A DNA stretch of 40,645 nt from a virus. The DNA lies in the IMG/VR virus record IMGVR_UViG_3300028840_000558; one strand, 5' to 3'. Below are positions 22,686 through 38,328 of this stretch, piece by piece. A program made the position numbers and the translations under genes. The first letter of the stretch is position 1; each line of letters begins with the position of its first letter. A model generated the notes under the pieces. That model was given only the letters and a program-made list of their open reading frames with translations, ran no database searches and was not told the origin of the DNA.

Positions 22686-24236
22686 CTATTTGTCCTTTAT
22701 TTCAATATCACCACATTCCACATCGCCATACTGCTTAATCGCCTTCGGATCACCCTTATAAAATATCAATACGTTTTGATGGGTCTTTCCCAGCTTGCGG
22801 TATCCCTGGAACTGTTTACCAACTCTAATAGTCAACGATCCCACAGCCGTTACTAATATAGCCTCGTTATATAATTCCATACCCGCTCTTTGAAATGCGT
22901 CAATGGTATCACTCACGAAATTACGATAGAATCCTTGTTTATCCCGTAAATCCCCAACCACAAAACAGGCAAAACGATTGTCTTTTAGCATTGATATACT
23001 AGAGGCTACAATAGATCGATATTGGCTTATAAACTCCTCATAAGAACTAAGTGCTGATAATTCTCCGGGCAAATCGCTGTAAATTTCAAGATTGTAATAT
23101 GGTGGACACGAAAAGACAAAATCATATTCTCCTGAAGCCAAATCAATGACATTTATACTATCTCCGACAATCCAAGTTGGAGATAGGTCTAGATTCTCCG
23201 CTTGTTTCTTATTTGCCACTACCTGCTCCGGGCGCAGTTCAATACCTGTATACTTATAACCGAGATACTCGGCCACAATGCCCCGTACACTTCCACCGGA
23301 AAATGGGTCTAATATCATTGCGTTATTGGAGGGACAGAACCAGCGATAGGCGAGTTCGCATAAAACAGGATCAAAGATACTTGTGCCAGTTTGCGTAACT
23401 TCTGCTACTTTTGGCGTTGATTCTGCCGTTCCTCCATGCCATAAATTGCCCTTCAATTGTGATCCTGTCCTCATAAAATCTCGATTTTTATAGTCGCATG
23501 ATAACTCTCCTGGTCCCCCGCTGTTGTAGACAACAGCGGATTGTCGTTGTCTGTCAAACCGCTTCGCAGTTCCTTTCGTGCCACCATAATTTAGCGAACC
23601 ATCAGCATTCTGCGTCACAGTTGGGGGATGCGGGGGTTTGCAACCTTCTCCACGTCCTAACTCACTTTGAATCCCCAACGATAACCAAGCGTTCTTTCGC
23701 TCCTGCCAATATCCCTGACGCGCATCTAGCACACTAAAAGGCGGCACAATAAACCGTTCTGCTAGTGTCTGCGCCCCAGGGTCTTCCGGCGGCTCTTCAC
23801 TATCCCACAGCGTCAAGTCCAGTTCTTGTGGTTCAAAACCCCAATTCAATAAATCATCCACCTCAAAGTTGTTAGCCAGCAGATCAAAATCCCATTCGCC
23901 CGCCGCGCCCTTGTGCAGGAACACAGTCAACTTCTTTCGCTCATCCTCGGTCAGTTCCCTGGATGCAACCCGGCAATCTACCTCATAATCTGGACCATGC
24001 TCGTCAATCCAGACGTTTAGCCGCTGGTGTCCATTGTAAATTTCGTTGTCTGGACCGATAGCGATTGTCTCCACCTGGGAGAACTCATCTAGCGACTGGC
24101 TCAATCGCTGCGCCTGGTCTTTCTTTATTTGGCGCGGGTTTATCGGCCAGGGGATTAGATCGCCTAACCTGCGTTTTTCATTCGTCCAGATAATACCGTT
24201 GCTGCTCACCTCGTACACCTGATAATTCCCCAGCAC
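22686..24236 (-). CDS. ParB-like nuclease domain fused to an N6A/N4C-type DNA methyltransferase
   Basis: The N-terminus has ...IYNGHQRL (ParB-type). The C-terminus has motif I ILDPFSGGSVRG and motif IV FSCPPYYN. The GTG start is uncertain (24236 or 24218). Confidence 0.75.
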   Translation of the reverse strand: MLGNYQVYEVSSNGIIWTNEKRRLGDLIPWPINPRQIKKDQAQRLSQSLDEFSQVETIAIGPDNEIYNGHQRLNVWIDEHGPDYEVDCRVASRELTEDERKKLTVFLHKGAAGEWDFDLLANNFEVDDLLNWGFEPQELDLTLWDSEEPPEDPGAQTLAERFIVPPFSVLDARQGYWQERKNAWLSLGIQSELGRGEGCKPPHPPTVTQNADGSLNYGGTKGTAKRFDRQRQSAVVYNSGGPGELSCDYKNRDFMRTGSQLKGNLWHGGTAESTPKVAEVTQTGTSIFDPVLCELAYRWFCPSNNAMILDPFSGGSVRGIVAEYLGYKYTGIELRPEQVVANKKQAENLDLSPTWIVGDSINVIDLASGEYDFVFSCPPYYNLEIYSDLPGELSALSSYEEFISQYRSIVASSISMLKDNRFACFVVGDLRDKQGFYRNFVSDTIDAFQRAGMELYNEAILVTAVGSLTIRVGKQFQGYRKLGKTHQNVLIFYKGDPKAIKQYGDVECGDIEIKDK

Positions 24237-33749: not shown

Positions 33750-34587
33750 GATATATCCTATGGGATTTGTAATCCTTAAATGGAATATGTCCTAGAAATC
33801 GTTGTTTTGACCAATAACGCACATAATCTTTTAGTTCTCTTTCTGTCCAATATTCGCCTATATATTGGTTTCGTTTTATTGAATCGAGTGGCTGGTAGCG
33901 CATGGGACTTACCCATATACCTAAATTCTTCAATGTCTCCAATCTATATAACGCATCCTCGGGTGTATCTTTGAAACCGATAAGACAATAAACCCGCAAT
34001 TTATTTTTAGGTATTCCAGCATCCATTAATAATTGCAACGATCCTAAAACTTTATTCTCGATCTTGGCATTATCCCAAGCTAATCTCACACAATACAAAT
34101 CAAGCTCTGATAGTCTATTGGCGTGATAATTATTAAGCAATCGGGCATCCAGGCCCTGATTAAAATCTATTCCTTTTATAGACTTTAATTTGTCTATCAC
34201 GCTATCAAAATGAAACTTACTCGATGCTAAAAAGTTATTGTCACAAACAATTGGTTTTATTTTCCAATCATCAAGTTCTACAAAATCCCCTTCTATTTTA
34301 GGTACTATGCAAAACGGACACTGACGTATACAACCCCTAGTAGTAAACGTAGCGTCTGGATTATGTTTTTCTAAAACACCATCCATTGAATTTCGAACTA
34401 ATGCAACGCTTTTTAAATATTGTGGGTTATACAAGACCGCCGGACCGCCAGCAACAACCTTATATCCTAGTGACTTATACCAAATCGCTCGCTGATAAGT
34501 CTTGGCTAATTGCCATGAAAAAACTACAGAAAGGTAAGCTGTATCATTCTCGATCCAATCAATAAGTCCGCCAGACCATTTAGTCAT
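33721..34587 (-). CDS. Radical SAM domain protein
   Basis: CxxxCxxC motif CIRQCPFC at about 34309..34332. Lies in the AT-rich island. Confidence 0.65.
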   Translation of the reverse strand: MTKWSGGLIDWIENDTAYLSVVFSWQLAKTYQRAIWYKSLGYKVVAGGPAVLYNPQYLKSVALVRNSMDGVLEKHNPDATFTTRGCIRQCPFCIVPKIEGDFVELDDWKIKPIVCDNNFLASSKFHFDSVIDKLKSIKGIDFNQGLDARLLNNYHANRLSELDLYCVRLAWDNAKIENKVLGSLQLLMDAGIPKNKLRVYCLIGFKDTPEDALYRLETLKNLGIWVSPMRYQPLDSIKRNQYIGEYWTERELKDYVRYWSKQRFLGHIPFKDYKSHRIYHEYSSERLI

Positions 34588-34609
34588 ATTGTTTATTAAT
34601 TCCTCTTAC

Positions 34610-35362
34610 TCAATTTGAGTAGCCTGCACGTTTCAACTCCTCAACGGATGTGCCGTTAGTCTTGCTGTCTTTGCGGTTGGACTGGAATCCTTCCACCTGC
34701 CATCGTTTTAGAATCGCCTCGGCATAAGACCACGACCGTTTATTCTGGCGCGACGCCTCCTCAATTGCCGCGATAATCCACTCCTCCGGTATTTGTTCAT
34801 CATCAATCCACGACGCTATAGAATCCATGACCTTTGGAGTTAATACCCCTATCTCTGATTCATAAGAATTAAAGACAGAAGAACTATTACTACTGCCTTT
34901 CCTTTCTTCTTCTTCTTTATTTTCTTCTTCTTTAATTAACGATATGGTATCTATACCGTATGGATAGGGTATATTATTAGTAGAATAGGGTATTTTTTTC
35001 TGATAATATGCTATATAAATGTGTTTTAATTCGCAATCTGGTATTTCGTCTAGATCCTTTTGGATTCGTTTTTCTACAAGCGAACTTCCCTTATGGTATT
35101 TGCGCATGTTCACAATCCATACGATTCCCTCACGGTAAATAACCTTGTTCCCTTGCTCGAATTTAATAAGTGAATTTTTTATGAAGTCCTCGTCAAGCCC
35201 GGTTTCCCAATGCATTACTTTAATGGGTAATTTATAAATCCCGCTAAGACTAGCAAGCTCATTAGAAAACAAGTAAATAAATAACAGTTTTTCATCTGAA
35301 TTTAAATCTATGAACCATTCATCTTTCCAGATGCTTACATGAATTTGACGATAATTAGCCAT
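34610..35362 (-). CDS. DnaD / replisome-organiser-like replication protein
   Basis: The C-terminus FNSYESEIGVLTP...AIEEASRQNKRSWSYAEAILKRWQVEG resembles a DnaD-type domain. Confidence 0.6.
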   Translation of the reverse strand: MANYRQIHVSIWKDEWFIDLNSDEKLLFIYLFSNELASLSGIYKLPIKVMHWETGLDEDFIKNSLIKFEQGNKVIYREGIVWIVNMRKYHKGSSLVEKRIQKDLDEIPDCELKHIYIAYYQKKIPYSTNNIPYPYGIDTISLIKEEENKEEEERKGSSNSSSVFNSYESEIGVLTPKVMDSIASWIDDEQIPEEWIIAAIEEASRQNKRSWSYAEAILKRWQVEGFQSNRKDSKTNGTSVEELKRAGYSN

Positions 35363-35375
35363 AAATACCTCAATA

Positions 35376-35897
35376 TCAAAGCAGGAACGGATTGATTAAA
35401 TCGGTTTCTTCAATGCTTTTTATCCAATCTACATCCTCATCAGTTAATTGAAACCATTCTCCAAATACACACTTGCCAGCAAACATCTGATGTAAAATTT
35501 TTTCAAGTTCGGAGCACCTCTTTGAGCGGATTTTATGGATCAACATTAAACTAGAGTTTCCCGTAGATGATTGCAGAGCATTAAGACGCTTGCGAATATC
35601 AGTAGTCATTCCAATTTTATATAAATTACGTTCGCAATCTTTGATTAGATAAACATATCCAATGCGTCGTCTTACACCCTTGAAATCATCAAGCAATCCA
35701 AGTTTCTCTAGTTCTGCCACATCGCGTTCAATATTTTCTAGCGACTTATGAGTATAAAAAGCTAGGTCTTCGGAAGTAACCAACTCTTCTTTCCAAGAAA
35801 ATACTAAACAAATTTCAACGAATGTTCGCCACAGCCTGTCGCTCAACGTACCAATTTTGTAGTTATTTAATATATGATGATTAATTACGAGTTTCAT
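35376..35897 (-). CDS. T5orf172 (GIY-YIG-like) domain protein with an N-terminal winged-helix-like region
   Basis: GYVYLIKDCERNLYKIGMTTDIRKRLNALQSS...ELEKILHQMFAGKCVFGEWFQL. Confidence 0.6.
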   Translation of the reverse strand: MKLVINHHILNNYKIGTLSDRLWRTFVEICLVFSWKEELVTSEDLAFYTHKSLENIERDVAELEKLGLLDDFKGVRRRIGYVYLIKDCERNLYKIGMTTDIRKRLNALQSSTGNSSLMLIHKIRSKRCSELEKILHQMFAGKCVFGEWFQLTDEDVDWIKSIEETDLINPFLL

Positions 35898-36019
35898 TCC
35901 GCTCCTTACGCAAACACCCGCTCACCACCATTTCTGTTAGCTGCTAGGGCACACAGGACTGGGTAGATGAGCGGGTATTCGCACAGAAACATAAATCCTG
36001 CGTGCAACCTAGCCCCACA

Positions 36020-36028
36020 ATTATACCA
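36020..36028 (-). promoter_or_regulatory. Extended -10 element TGGTATAAT (second copy of the motif seen at 17928..17936)
   Basis: The minus strand reads TGGTATAAT. There is no convincing -35. A leader of about 120 nt with a 9-bp hairpin (ACCCGCUCA...UGAGCGGGU) precedes the T5orf172 gene. Confidence 0.4.
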
Positions 36029-36037
36029 CAGGTTGAA

Positions 36038-37153
36038 TTATATACCGGCGGCATGTTCAATTATCCTCCTGCCAACCCACTCTGCGACCTGCGGCACTAC
36101 GGCGTTGCCTAGTCCTCTAAGTCGGTCCACCCGAGCGGGAACTTTTGTGGCTATACGAGGGATGCCATCTTCCCAACTGGATATTTCCCAATTCGTCTTC
36201 CCGTCGAATGCCAAAAATCGTGACACGGTTTGCATAGAGTTTGAATGTTCTCTGCTAAATTGTTCTGAATCCTCTGGTCTATATGATGAGCCTGCAAATC
36301 CAAGCATGAGCCGCACGCCTCGCATTTCGTCTTCAAGTGCTTCCGGGCACGCCACGAATATCCGTGCTTGGTCAATGTCTGGCGCGTGTTCGCACACGAA
36401 AGCGAACAAAACCTCCGCTGCTTGAAGGCGGTCAAGTCCTCCAGTCGCTTTCCGTATCGCTTCCGCACCATTTCCTCGCCACAACTCTCGCAATATTTTG
36501 GTTGCTCTTTTACTCTCTTCATAACTCATTCCTTTTCCGATATGTCGCTCCAACCATGAGGGAAACCCATCAGACCTTCTACCCACGCCGGGTTCAACTG
36601 ACCACCAACTTCGCTTGATAGAGGAGGCGAATGATTCCCGTGGTCTGTTCCTGTTCCGCTCCTGTAGTCTCGTTCTGTCGGTGTCGGCCACAATGAAGAT
36701 CCGTTCTCGTCTGTGCGGGGCATCGAAGGCGCAAGCTGGAATATTAAATGTCCAGCAGGTGTAGCCTTCACTTTCCAGGTCAGATAGCACCTGGTCGAGA
36801 TAGGTGGTGACGATTCCAGGAACGTTCTCGGCAAGGACGTATCGCGGTCTTGCCTCTCTAATAATCCGGATAAATTCTGGCCAGAGATTGCGGTCATCTG
36901 CTGCGCCTCGTCGCTTCCCGGCGACACTGTGAGGCTGGCAAGGGAATCCTCCAGCAATAAGATCAACTGGTTCGAGGTTCCGTTTTCCACACTTTCTGAC
37001 ATCTCTGTACCTCCTAACCTCCGTCCAATGCTTCTCCAATACTTTTGTGCAGTAGTTGTCAAGTTCGACCTGCCACAGGCACGTCATTCCAGCGCGCTCA
37101 AGCCCCAGGTCAATGCCTCCTATCCCCGCGAACAGCGAGCCGAAGGTCATCAT
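36038..37153 (-). CDS. DNA (cytosine-5) methyltransferase, with an uninterrupted 371-codon frame across a nested HNH gene
   Basis: Motif I FAGIGG, IV GGFPCQPHS, VI LAENVPG, VIII APHRRERIFIV, X GLGNAVVPQ. About 130 codons between motifs VIII and X have no recognisable motif. Confidence 0.7.
   Translation of the reverse strand: MMTFGSLFAGIGGIDLGLERAGMTCLWQVELDNYCTKVLEKHWTEVRRYRDVRKCGKRNLEPVDLIAGGFPCQPHSVAGKRRGAADDRNLWPEFIRIIREARPRYVLAENVPGIVTTYLDQVLSDLESEGYTCWTFNIPACAFDAPHRRERIFIVADTDRTRLQERNRNRPRESFASSIKRSWWSVEPGVGRRSDGFPSWLERHIGKGMSYEESKRATKILRELWRGNGAEAIRKATGGLDRLQAAEVLFAFVCEHAPDIDQARIFVACPEALEDEMRGVRLMLGFAGSSYRPEDSEQFSREHSNSMQTVSRFLAFDGKTNWEISSWEDGIPRIATKVPARVDRLRGLGNAVVPQVAEWVGRRIIEHAAGI
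36151..36522 (-). CDS. HNH endonuclease (homing-type), nested out of frame inside the methyltransferase ORF
   Basis: CESCG...CEACGSCLDLQAHHIDQRIQNNLAENIQTLCKPCHDFWH. AAGGAA RBS 6 nt upstream of the ATG. Confidence 0.8.
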   Translation of the reverse strand: MKRVKEQPKYCESCGEEMVRKRYGKRLEDLTAFKQRRFCSLSCANTRQTLTKHGYSWRARKHLKTKCEACGSCLDLQAHHIDQRIQNNLAENIQTLCKPCHDFWHSTGRRIGKYPVGKMASLV

Positions 37154-38154
37154 CTCAACATCTCCTCATACACGTACCACGCGGGCTTCTTCATTCTTGC
37201 ATACGCCAGGTCGGAGTTGCGCCAACCGTTGCCGTAAAGCGTGTACCACAGCACGTGGTCAACCAGGTCTAAGTTGAATATATAGTGCGCGTAATCTGCC
37301 TGCGCCTTCTCGAATGAGCCGCCGCAGTCTCCGTCACAAAGTAAACTGGTCTCTGTAATCCAGATAGGTTTGTCCACGCCGTACCTGCGTAAAAAGTCAA
37401 GTTGTCTCAGCACTTGCTTGTAGTCCATCTTGGGGTATGTCAAGTATGAGTGAATTGAGTACACGTCATAGTTGGGTTGGGTCGATAACATCCCCTCGGT
37501 AAACTCTGCCTTTTTACTGAACGGGTCAAGAAGTGTCGCACCTGCCATGATGTAAACGCTGGGATGGTACGCATGTACGATGTTGTAGACATAATCCACG
37601 AACTCACCATACAGTTTGCCCGCCTGGAAATACGTCAACCTGTTCGGCCAACATCCCATCAGCGGGGAGTTCGGGTCAATGCCGCTCGCGTGCGTCTCGG
37701 GTTCGTTCCATATCTCAACCGCGTTGGGGTGATACCTGTCTATCACGCTGACAACGAACATTGCGTAGTCATAGTAGTAGTGTTCCGCGGGAGGAGAGCA
37801 AACATAACCCGCGTACTGCCTCGCCCAGGTGGGTGTAGTCTTGATGTTCAACACTAACGGATATGACTCAAGTGCGCGAATGTCAGCGTCAAGCTTTGAA
37901 GGCCAGTTTAGAACTCCGCGCTCTTCTTCAATCTTGTACCAGAACACCTGCCGCTCAACGGTAGATCCTGGTATGAGGTACGGTTGGTTGTAATCGGTCG
38001 CGCCTTCCAACTGGACGCCGACACGGTGCAGCGCGGGTCTTGACTTGATTGCGATTGGCATGAATATTTTATGCTCCTGTATTCCTAGTGGTTTTGTTGG
38101 TACACAAGAGACCATGATTACCGCCAGAATAAATAAAACCAGATATTTTCGCAT
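37150..38154 (-). CDS. Lipoprotein glycoside hydrolase, clan GH-A (beta/alpha)8-like
   Basis: Signal/lipobox MRKYLVLFILAVIMVSC. Acid/base-type VEIWNEPE and nucleophile-type IWITETS. I chose the start at 38154 so that the signal peptide is N-terminal. Confidence 0.6.
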   Translation of the reverse strand: MRKYLVLFILAVIMVSCVPTKPLGIQEHKIFMPIAIKSRPALHRVGVQLEGATDYNQPYLIPGSTVERQVFWYKIEEERGVLNWPSKLDADIRALESYPLVLNIKTTPTWARQYAGYVCSPPAEHYYYDYAMFVVSVIDRYHPNAVEIWNEPETHASGIDPNSPLMGCWPNRLTYFQAGKLYGEFVDYVYNIVHAYHPSVYIMAGATLLDPFSKKAEFTEGMLSTQPNYDVYSIHSYLTYPKMDYKQVLRQLDFLRRYGVDKPIWITETSLLCDGDCGGSFEKAQADYAHYIFNLDLVDHVLWYTLYGNGWRNSDLAYARMKKPAWYVYEEMLR

Positions 38155-38328
38155 GTCATAATAATTCCGGGCATGGGTGCCGCCGTTCCCATGCAATGAA
38201 GGACACTTGTTCTGGTATCAAAGATTGAAGTAGGATCTCTCCTTTAGTTCTCCACCGCAGGGTTAGGCGGCATCGTACTGCGGATCGTTGCGGGGTGGGA
38301 GCATACGCTTCTACCACGTACCGCTTAG

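Follow-up and report, generated by a model that had tools for sequence, protein, structure and literature searches.

In the C5 methyltransferase M.AquI, motifs I-VIII are carried by one chain and motifs IX and X by the other. In phage Aeh1, the free-standing homing endonuclease gene mobE splits nrdA, creating a gene in pieces. Here, we analyzed a methyltransferase locus on the minus strand (36038..37153) of IMG/VR virus record IMGVR_UViG_3300028840_000558, a stretch of 40,645 nucleotides (nt) that is referred to as the window throughout. The locus is probably a C5 methyltransferase made of two polypeptides, alpha and beta, in the design of M.EcoHK31I, which was invaded by an HNH endonuclease cassette that lies out of frame and is read through by the host gene.

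According to the published account of M.EcoHK31I (Lee, Kam and Shaw 1995; PMC2836561), beta lies wholly inside another frame of alpha and contains motif IX, and both chains are needed. The same account describes the N-terminal part of beta as largely dispensable and places the target-recognition domain (TRD) in alpha. The second relevant system is the ShiLan domain, a 202-amino-acid (aa) insertion in a mycobacteriophage methylase with an out-of-frame HNH gene (Arsenault, Gosselin and Gogarten 2025; PMC11855218). Its host frame is stop-free, it has no intron or intein signature, and its disjunct distribution was read as homing. The peptide encoded in the host frame was predicted to form a poorly ordered loop and a small helical bundle, and the authors found no ribosome-binding site and proposed leaderless initiation (PMC11855218). 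The class of the methylase is not stated in the ShiLan papers.

According to the listing of open reading frames (ORFs) of the window, the minus strand at 36038..37153 holds three ORFs in two frames:

36038..37153, minus strand: alpha ORF, frame 0, 371 aa; catalytic domain, linker, HNH read-through and motif X
36526..37002, minus strand: beta ORF, +1 frame, 158 aa from ATG; frame open from 37062
36151..36522, minus strand: HNH ORF, 123 aa, in the same +1 frame as beta

As in M.EcoHK31I, beta of the window lies within the alpha gene but is read in another frame. This likeness is one of architecture, and a tblastn search of beta against plasmids returned only Bacillus, Paenibacillus and Lacticaseibacillus and no E. 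coli match. In addition, the window counterpart of the largely dispensable N-terminal part of beta overlaps the alpha catalytic domain, and the TRD-like sequence WPTPTxRDY is found in beta, in contrast to the TRD described in alpha of M.EcoHK31I. Furthermore, M.EcoHK31I belongs to a bacterial restriction-modification system without an HNH insert, whereas the window locus belongs to a phage and contains one. An earlier reading of this DNA from its letters alone, hereafter the sequence-only reading, had suggested an enzyme split in the manner of M.AquI. The split into two polypeptides holds, and 19 relatives with a second architecture (see below) divide their motifs as M.AquI does. However, M.AquI does not serve as a model for the window, where alpha retains motif X and the two genes, instead of being adjacent, overlap in different frames. 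Since the overlap is ancestral in relatives, the closest published precedent is M.EcoHK31I and not M.AquI. The locus also resembles genes-in-pieces in that a conserved phage gene harbours a putative homing endonuclease gene that is not carried by an intron or intein, and host function is apparently retained. There, the host gene is cut into two ORFs, whereas the host ORF of the window continues through the endonuclease gene.

With ShiLan, the locus shares a stop-free methylase insertion, an HNH gene in an alternative frame and the lack of an intron or intein signature, and in both cases the sequence that follows the insertion site is similar to the beginning of the insert. The ShiLan HNH has 195 aa and two zinc ribbons and lies in the 'third frame', while the window HNH has 123 aa and one N-terminal zinc ribbon and lies in the +1 frame. 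Moreover, the window has a clear Shine-Dalgarno (SD) element and apparent stop-start coupling to the upstream ORF, and its host is an alpha/beta overlapping gene with the insert on a dual-coded junction, which is not described in PMC11855218. Searching 50,697 phage records with the window HNH (tblastn, E 1e-3) gave no mycobacteriophage match, and ShiLan was absent among the megablast relatives of gp69 of mycobacteriophage Hades. Judged by description and by the absence of a mycobacteriophage match, the window HNH is of a lineage that appears different from that of ShiLan. Nested two-frame methyltransferases and read-through HNH genes are thus each known separately, and their combination here is a tidy variation and not a new type of system.

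The overlapping alpha and beta frames

The 371-aa alpha protein occurs in identical copies on 8 contigs, and the independent Logan assembly of SRR6963491 is 100% identical to the locus over 1716 nt. All sequence-level statements of the sequence-only reading on the three-ORF layout were borne out by the ORF listing, including the +1 ORF that ends in a motif-IX-like sequence and the HNH ORF that begins one codon after its TGA. Its view that two out-of-frame open stretches are unlikely to arise by chance was upheld by simulations (P 2e-4 to 0.025). With the HNH protein held fixed, the alpha frame across HNH was found to have 0 stops compared to 5.3-7.6 expected (P about 2e-4). With alpha held fixed, the probability of a stop-free beta frame was 2e-4 under the codon usage of neighbour genes and 0.025 when the gene's own codons were shuffled. 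Chance is excluded as the origin of the open frames within the window.

The conserved parts of alpha and the start signal of beta are located as follows:

36662..37150, minus strand: alpha catalytic half, aa 2-164, with motifs I (FAGIGG), IV (GFPCQ), VI (ENV) and VIII (RRERIF)
36041..36118, minus strand: single-frame segment of alpha with motif X and the C-terminal helix (RGLGNAVVPQVAEWVGRRIIEHAAGI)
37010..37015, minus strand: AGGAGG Shine-Dalgarno element, 7 nt upstream of the beta ATG and inside the alpha codons R-R-Y

Pfam family PF00145 matched aa 2-164 of alpha only, which correspond to profile positions 1-168 of 324 (E 6e-49), and Foldseek aligned alpha with M.HhaI and M.HaeIII (E 2e-14, about 161 columns). 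The PHROGs label for alpha is 'DNA methyltransferase'. The catalytic half is 80-85% identical to insert-free homologs, and its AlphaFold2 (AF2) model has predicted local distance difference test (pLDDT) values of mostly 80-95. By its catalytic motifs and M.HhaI-like fold, alpha is a C5 cytosine DNA methyltransferase. The catalytic half is followed by a linker of low-complexity, unconserved sequence, and motif X (GLGNAVVPQ) is found near the C-terminus. The residues L348, G349, N350, A351, V353 and P354 were invariant among 27 insert-bearing homologs, and the C-terminal helix (354-370) was modelled with pLDDT 74-88. No motif IX pattern was found in the alpha frame, neither in the window nor in the top 120 homologs; alpha therefore does not carry motifs IX and X on one polypeptide after the TRD, as PF00145 enzymes do. 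Pfam and the pattern search thus agree with the sequence-only reading, which had listed motifs I, IV, VI, VIII and X but no motif IX for this frame. In a virtual protein of alpha motifs I-VIII, the beta C-terminus and motif X, the Pfam hidden Markov model (HMM) stopped at about position 165, and it likewise ended near position 165 in a virtual alpha with the insert deleted, so that motifs IX and X could not be confirmed by that route.

The likely start of beta is the ATG at 37002..37000 (minus strand), which gives 158 aa; when started at TTG, the +1-frame ORF (36526..37062, minus strand) encodes 178 aa. Of 36 relatives, 21 had an ATG where alpha encodes the equivalent D-V, and 12 of these 21 also had an SD-like motif. 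The N-terminal part of beta reads PGSDEAQQMTAISG...STRCYLTWK. Further along, beta carries the TRD-like sequence WPTPTERDYRSG and the motif-IX-like sequence LNPAWVEGLMGFPHGWSD, and it ends with ...LNPAWVEGLMGFPHGWSDISEKE before the stop TGA (36528..36526, minus strand). Beta matched phrog_1008, 'DNA methyltransferase' (E 1e-26), and the pattern LNPAWVEGLMGFPHGW is conserved across the beta family; Pfam gave no match to beta and none among 101 called beta homologs. The wobble diversity of alpha at conserved four-fold codons was lower inside the overlap than before it (0.56 vs 0.71, P 5e-4). Hence, beta is itself under selection.

The sequence-only reading had treated the +1 ORF as part of an HNH invasion and had offered dual coding, recoding or a recent frame change as explanations for the two frames. 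We compared the locus with distinct IMG/VR relatives of the window's catalytic domain that lack the insert. The +1 frame was open for at least 160 codons in 42/42 of them, with a median of 254 codons vs 41 for the -1 frame, and the alpha/beta overlap was 160-400 codons long. A motif-IX-like pattern was detected in the +1 frame of 34/42 relatives and an HNH in 0/42. For example, three insert-free loci (L006, L008, L009) have a +1 ORF of 235-274 codons nested in alpha that reads ...PGSEEAxxMTxTSG...STRCYLTWK...WPTPxAxD...LNPxWVEWLMGFPxGWTDL. The overlap is also present in mycobacteriophage Hades gp69, and beta-like ORFs were found in 93 cultured phages. Because the overlap is present in all 42 insert-free relatives, the two-frame layout was not caused by HNH, and dual coding stands while recoding and a recent frame change do not. 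As judged from the open frames of its members, the comparison shows the alpha/beta overlap to be ancestral and universal in the subfamily.

In Paenibacillus phage Likha (L001 963-2000) and many P. larvae phages, two nested coding sequences are both annotated as 'DNA cytosine methyltransferase'. This pair is an unrecognised alpha/beta pair.

The HNH cassette at the motif IX/X junction

The cassette comprises 423 nt (141 codons, a multiple of three) and is located at the dual-coded junction between motifs IX and X. The insertion site was expected to emerge from alignment with uninterrupted homologs, and indeed the short forms of alpha (230-340 aa) join motif VIII via the linker directly to ...EPDVGRVAHGVPxRVDRLRGLGNAVVPQ, while long forms (400-450 aa) have about 140 extra residues. 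EPxVG and GNAVVP are separated by 161-162 aa in insert-bearing homologs vs 21 aa in insert-free ones. The elements of the cassette and its borders are the following:

36542..36595, minus strand: repeat copy 1 of the junction; beta reading kept (LNPAWVEGLMGFPHGWSD, motif IX), alpha reading degenerated (EPGVGRRSDGFPSWLERH)
36529..36534, minus strand: AAGGAA SD-like element upstream of the HNH start
36173..36541, minus strand: alpha-frame read-through, aa 205-327; passenger peptide, no stop codons
36119..36172, minus strand: repeat copy 2 of the junction; alpha reading kept (EDGIPRIATKVPARVDRL), leading into the RGLGNAVVPQ motif X
36109..36150, minus strand: beta C-terminal relic that follows the HNH stop in the +1 frame, PQKFPLGWTDLED (FPLGWTDLED) and then a stop

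The sequence-only reading had noticed flanking direct repeats of 21 nt (36544..36564 and 36121..36141), 16/21 positions of which match by manual count. These repeats are real, and the duplication extends over about 54-63 nt (36542..36595 vs 36119..36172; 29/63 nt match, manual count), with an offset of 423 nt or 141 codons between the two copies. It is more evident at the protein than at the nucleotide level. In copy 1, the beta reading is GQLNPAWVEGLMGFPHGWSD, followed by ISEKE and the stop. Copy 2 has also kept the beta relic in the +1 frame, and the same bases after the HNH stop read KVPARVDRLRGLGNAVVPQ in frame 0. At loci L020 and L035, the HNH ORF extends into the equivalent beta relic, EWLMGWPLGWTDLNPLETDKFQQWL.

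The HNH protein consists of an N-terminal CxxC...FCSLSC zinc ribbon and the core CEACG...AHHID...N...NIQTLCKPCH..WH. It matched PHROG HNH families (E 2e-9), while Pfam support was weak (E 0.014). The AF2 model is confident (pLDDT 90.6), and its best matches in PDB, which scored weakly (best E 0.06), were mostly HNH nucleases, among them T5 SciA and Cap5. The search for homologs returned 296 clusters at 57-80% identity. A longer insert was seen at L037 and L042-L044 and in proteins P0096 and P0102, where EPxVG and GNAVVP are 195-196 aa apart and an extra segment (...LDRNIDLTFISHECIFTNVIYGG...) lies between the junction and HNH; this variant has no ATG as an HNH start where the alignment begins.

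We next considered the host frame across the cassette. At 36 viral loci found by search with the HNH protein, on 3 metagenome contigs and in Komagataeibacter phage phiKX1, the host frame (-1 relative to HNH) is open for 296-703 codons across HNH, whereas the third frame is open for about 12 codons only. In an overlapping-gene substitution analysis of 33 sequences, amino-acid identity was 70% for the HNH frame vs 44% for that of the host. Sites nonsynonymous in both frames (NN) differed with p 0.210 and sites nonsynonymous for HNH and synonymous for the host (NS) with p 0.222, i.e., a NN/NS ratio of about 0.94. Sites synonymous for HNH and nonsynonymous for the host (SN) were saturated (p 0.747). 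Hence, HNH is strongly constrained, whereas the host-frame peptide shows no detectable constraint at the amino-acid level, yet stays free of stops. The idea that the stretch of 130 codons is a normal TRD, which the sequence-only reading had named as fatal to its interpretation, does not agree with this lack of amino-acid constraint across HNH. Given that the host frame is open, its amino acids are neutral and motif X is invariant, alpha is most likely translated through the cassette as a passenger loop. The sequence-only reading had set a split enzyme against translation through the insert; both apparently hold at once, with two polypeptides and alpha passing through the insert.

At the upstream border, the beta TGA (36528..36526) is followed by one codon (GTT) and the HNH ATG (36522..36520). 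The layout of a stop, 3 nt and an ATG recurs at 10 further loci where alpha reads through (L002, L004, L005, L021, L031, L032, L033, L036, L046, L130), and in the window and at those 10 loci a purine run of the GGARRAGGA type lies 8-10 nt upstream of the HNH ATG. The conserved arrangement and the purine-rich SD suggest that HNH may be translated by termination-reinitiation coupled to beta. For this lineage, an SD and reinitiation after the beta stop would offer an answer to the question of hidden HNH translation that the ShiLan paper left open.

Probable homing and its alternatives

Taken together, the locus would work as follows. Beta would start at ATG 37002 behind AGGAGG and supply the TRD-like WPTPTxRDY and the motif-IX-like LNPxWVExLMGFPxGW, while alpha (frame 0) would supply motifs I-VIII and X. 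Alpha would be read straight through the cassette, with about 140 extra residues tolerated between the linker and motif X, and HNH would be made by reinitiation after the beta TGA, behind AAGGAA. By analogy with the M.EcoHK31I experiments, alpha and beta may then assemble into an active enzyme. HNH itself would be, or would recently have been, a homing endonuclease that cuts insert-free alleles at the near-invariant dual-coded junction and is copied in during repair.

The choice of site is in line with this proposal. Among 22 insert-free relatives, the junction (about 50 nt) has near-zero diversity at all three codon positions, while the wobble positions of motif X just downstream reach 0.45-0.68. 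It encodes W.VEPDVGRVAHGVPxRVD in alpha and GQLNPTWVEWLMGFPxGWTD in beta, and this dual coding results in an unusually invariant DNA target. A near-invariant junction is an ideal homing target, which suggests why the site is used.

Mobility is indicated by the distribution of the cassette. Insert-free proteins share 80-85% identity with the window's catalytic domain, compared to 78% for the nearest insert-bearing one, and the insert state changes on a neighbour-joining tree by at least 7 gains or losses, with insert-bearing homologs classified by the EPxVG-GNAVVP spacing. Next to the disjunct distribution of ShiLan, the one observed here thus includes insert-free nearest relatives and at least 7 changes of state, yet it is strongly structured by clade. 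At the same IX/X junction, L130 (1001-2365 of a JGI 3300022665 contig, protein P0091) contains a different HNH lineage of 119 aa (1935-2294), in which the core is N-terminal and the zinc ribbon C-terminal and 15/36 core residues match. This HNH starts one codon after the beta stop (beta 1143-1931), alpha reads through, and the locus looks like an independent invasion of the same site. HNH ORFs were intact in 36/37 cases. In L021 (2501-2560), HNH stops prematurely after 19 codons while the host methyltransferase frame is open over 465 codons, which looks like a decaying endonuclease in an intact host gene. The ShiLan domain provides a published analogue for homing.

The cassette was found in two host architectures with 19 loci each. 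In the first, which is that of the window, alpha reads through and HNH lies at +1. In the second, the catalytic ORF (I-VIII) ends 40-200 nt before HNH, which lies at +2 to the catalytic frame, and beta is fused in frame through the insert to motif X (MSWLFSQALVEEY...WPTPTA...LNPTWVEKLMGWPxxWT). The loci of this second type are:

L010-L020, L022-L027, L030, L035, L045: architecture 2 (e.g., L012 1530-2955)

Two cultured phages have related loci. Komagataeibacter phage phiKX1 (LC644975.1, L046 857-2513) encodes an alpha of 548 aa, a beta of 374 aa and an HNH of 172 aa, but its GenBank record lists only two short 'hypothetical protein' fragments at the locus and leaves the methyltransferase unannotated. 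A further out-of-frame HNH insertion of this kind is that of Staphylococcus phage CUB-EPI_14 gp45 (L047 836-2641), a canonical single-chain C5 methyltransferase of 601 aa with a nested +1 HNH ORF (1995-2477, Pfam HNH E 2e-5); the insertion immediately precedes motif IX, and the host frame is open through it.

Several observations weigh against the proposed history and anatomy. Classification by spacing weakened the argument from a scattered distribution relative to an earlier regular-expression classification that under-called inserts. The insert-bearing alleles fall mostly into one clade, with 7 changes vs 24.6 expected at random, and HNH identity correlates with host identity (r 0.74), which is compatible both with prolonged vertical co-inheritance and with homing between similar alleles. 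In the AF2 model of alpha, segments 162-193 and 288-350 have pLDDT below 50 but aa 200-285 form helices with pLDDT of about 70-79; these moderately confident passenger helices leave room for a structural role of the peptide. We infer translation of the alpha, beta and HNH ORFs from their sequences, and motif IX and the TRD are putative in beta, being assigned by pattern only. A profile of 42 beta homologs had no match among PDB sequences at E up to 10. Aligned by hhalign with the canonical Staphylococcus phage methyltransferase, the beta profile paired WPTPxAxD to LSPTIQARDYKG weakly (probability 0.7%), and the Pfam HMM did not reach beta even within the virtual composite protein. The sequence-only reading had proposed a homing-endonuclease invasion at motif IX. 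An HNH cassette is present, at the IX/X junction; weighing the clade structure and the correlation against the mobility evidence, we hold homing itself to be likely but unproven.

The same anatomy could also hold an HNH that is a domesticated partner instead of a selfish homing gene, which we regard as possible but unlikely. Such an HNH could spare DNA methylated by alpha/beta, in a nested restriction-modification or addiction-like module, or it could be a nicking or packaging nuclease, and, being nested and translationally coupled to beta, it would remain linked to the methyltransferase and be expressed together with it. In agreement with this, HNH is under strong purifying selection, remaining about 64% identical where host catalytic domains fall to 35-45%, and nearly all copies are intact. 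The identity correlation, the largely single clade of insert-bearing alleles and the conserved stop-one codon-ATG coupling to beta point the same way, and co-option was raised as a possibility by the ShiLan authors as well. However, a domesticated partner is difficult to reconcile with the absence of the cassette from all 42 close viral relatives and from the window's nearest catalytic-domain relatives, with the different HNH lineage of L130 at the same site and with the degenerate copy of L021. In addition, the duplicated target and the placement on the gene's most invariant DNA are hallmarks of homing elements. Slightly more doubtful still is the specific version in which a long-resident HNH, locked in the methyltransferase gene, forms a compact restriction-modification or addiction-like module of two frames and three proteins. 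If true, the phage could act against unmodified host or competitor genomes, and the junction duplication would serve to free two overlapping coding constraints from each other.

Programmed ribosomal frameshifting would instead produce a single chain from frame 0 up to motif VIII, the +1 frame for TRD and motif IX, and frame 0 again for motif X. The joined order of I-VIII, WPTPT..., LMGFPxGW and LGNAVVPQ does resemble a canonical enzyme. This explanation is nevertheless very improbable, as an open and conserved stretch of 90-190 codons precedes motif VIII in the +1 frame, which a frameshift product does not need, and the wobble constraint reaches into this upstream part. Furthermore, the +1 frame of the window has its own AGGAGG and ATG, M.EcoHK31I functions as two separately expressed chains, and frameshifting would need two shifts or a bypass of the entire HNH gene.

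More improbable again, if by little, is removal of the cassette as a group I or II intron or as an intein, with the open host frame being incidental. Group I introns commonly carry HNH genes, and the insert begins with a sequence like the one that follows it, a feature that the ShiLan authors considered a possible intron signature. A scan of 35500..37700 with Rfam at E up to 10 returned just two chance matches (a microRNA and a small nucleolar RNA) and no intron, and the host frame is stop-free at every locus examined, which is not required of a spliced intron; a group I intron-encoded HNH was rejected on these grounds. An intein was rejected because HNH is encoded in the +1 frame instead of that of the host, and because a Pfam search of the 371-aa alpha ORF detected neither a Hint nor an intein domain. 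The ShiLan study likewise found neither signal in its element. Finally, sequencing or assembly indels in a conventional single-frame gene, which the sequence-only reading had named among possible refutations, have nothing in their favour beyond the unusual appearance of the locus and are excluded by the identical independent assembly, the identical protein on 8 contigs and the same three-ORF layout in dozens of diverged contigs and finished phage genomes.

Neighbouring genes and implications

Other features of the window that bear on the methyltransferase or its surroundings are:

34610..35362: DnaD-like replication protein, within a low-GC segment
35376..35897: 173-aa ORF, matching PHROGs of unknown function and an 'endonuclease' family
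22686-24236, minus strand: second DNA methyltransferase, fused to a ParB-like N-terminal domain (phrog_498, E 1e-104)
37150-38196, minus strand: 348-aa ORF with a lipoprotein-like N-terminus and no PHROG match

The GC content of 34001-36000 is 0.37 vs about 0.50 elsewhere in the window, and this segment directly downstream of the methyltransferase may have been acquired recently. With the second methyltransferase, the phage carries at least two. The stop of the 348-aa ORF and the start of the methyltransferase overlap (ATGATGA), and alpha may thus be translationally coupled to this ORF.

Compared with earlier reports, the window locus adds an alpha/beta overlapping host and an insertion exactly on the dual-coded junction, where the junction duplication separates the two coding constraints. 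It further adds the clear SD with apparent stop-start coupling, quantitative evidence that only the openness of the host frame is selected, and the occurrence of one cassette in two wiring architectures. The cassette shows, in a well-replicated natural case, how a nuclease gene can reside within an ORF that looks essential and yet do without an intron or intein. The segment it occupies tolerates any host protein sequence, and selection acts there only against stops. A nested beta, since 1995 known from the single enzyme M.EcoHK31I, is standard in a large subfamily of phage methyltransferases. Among the relatives analyzed, usually just one of the two frames was called or annotated, and annotation pipelines and methylome studies should expect both.

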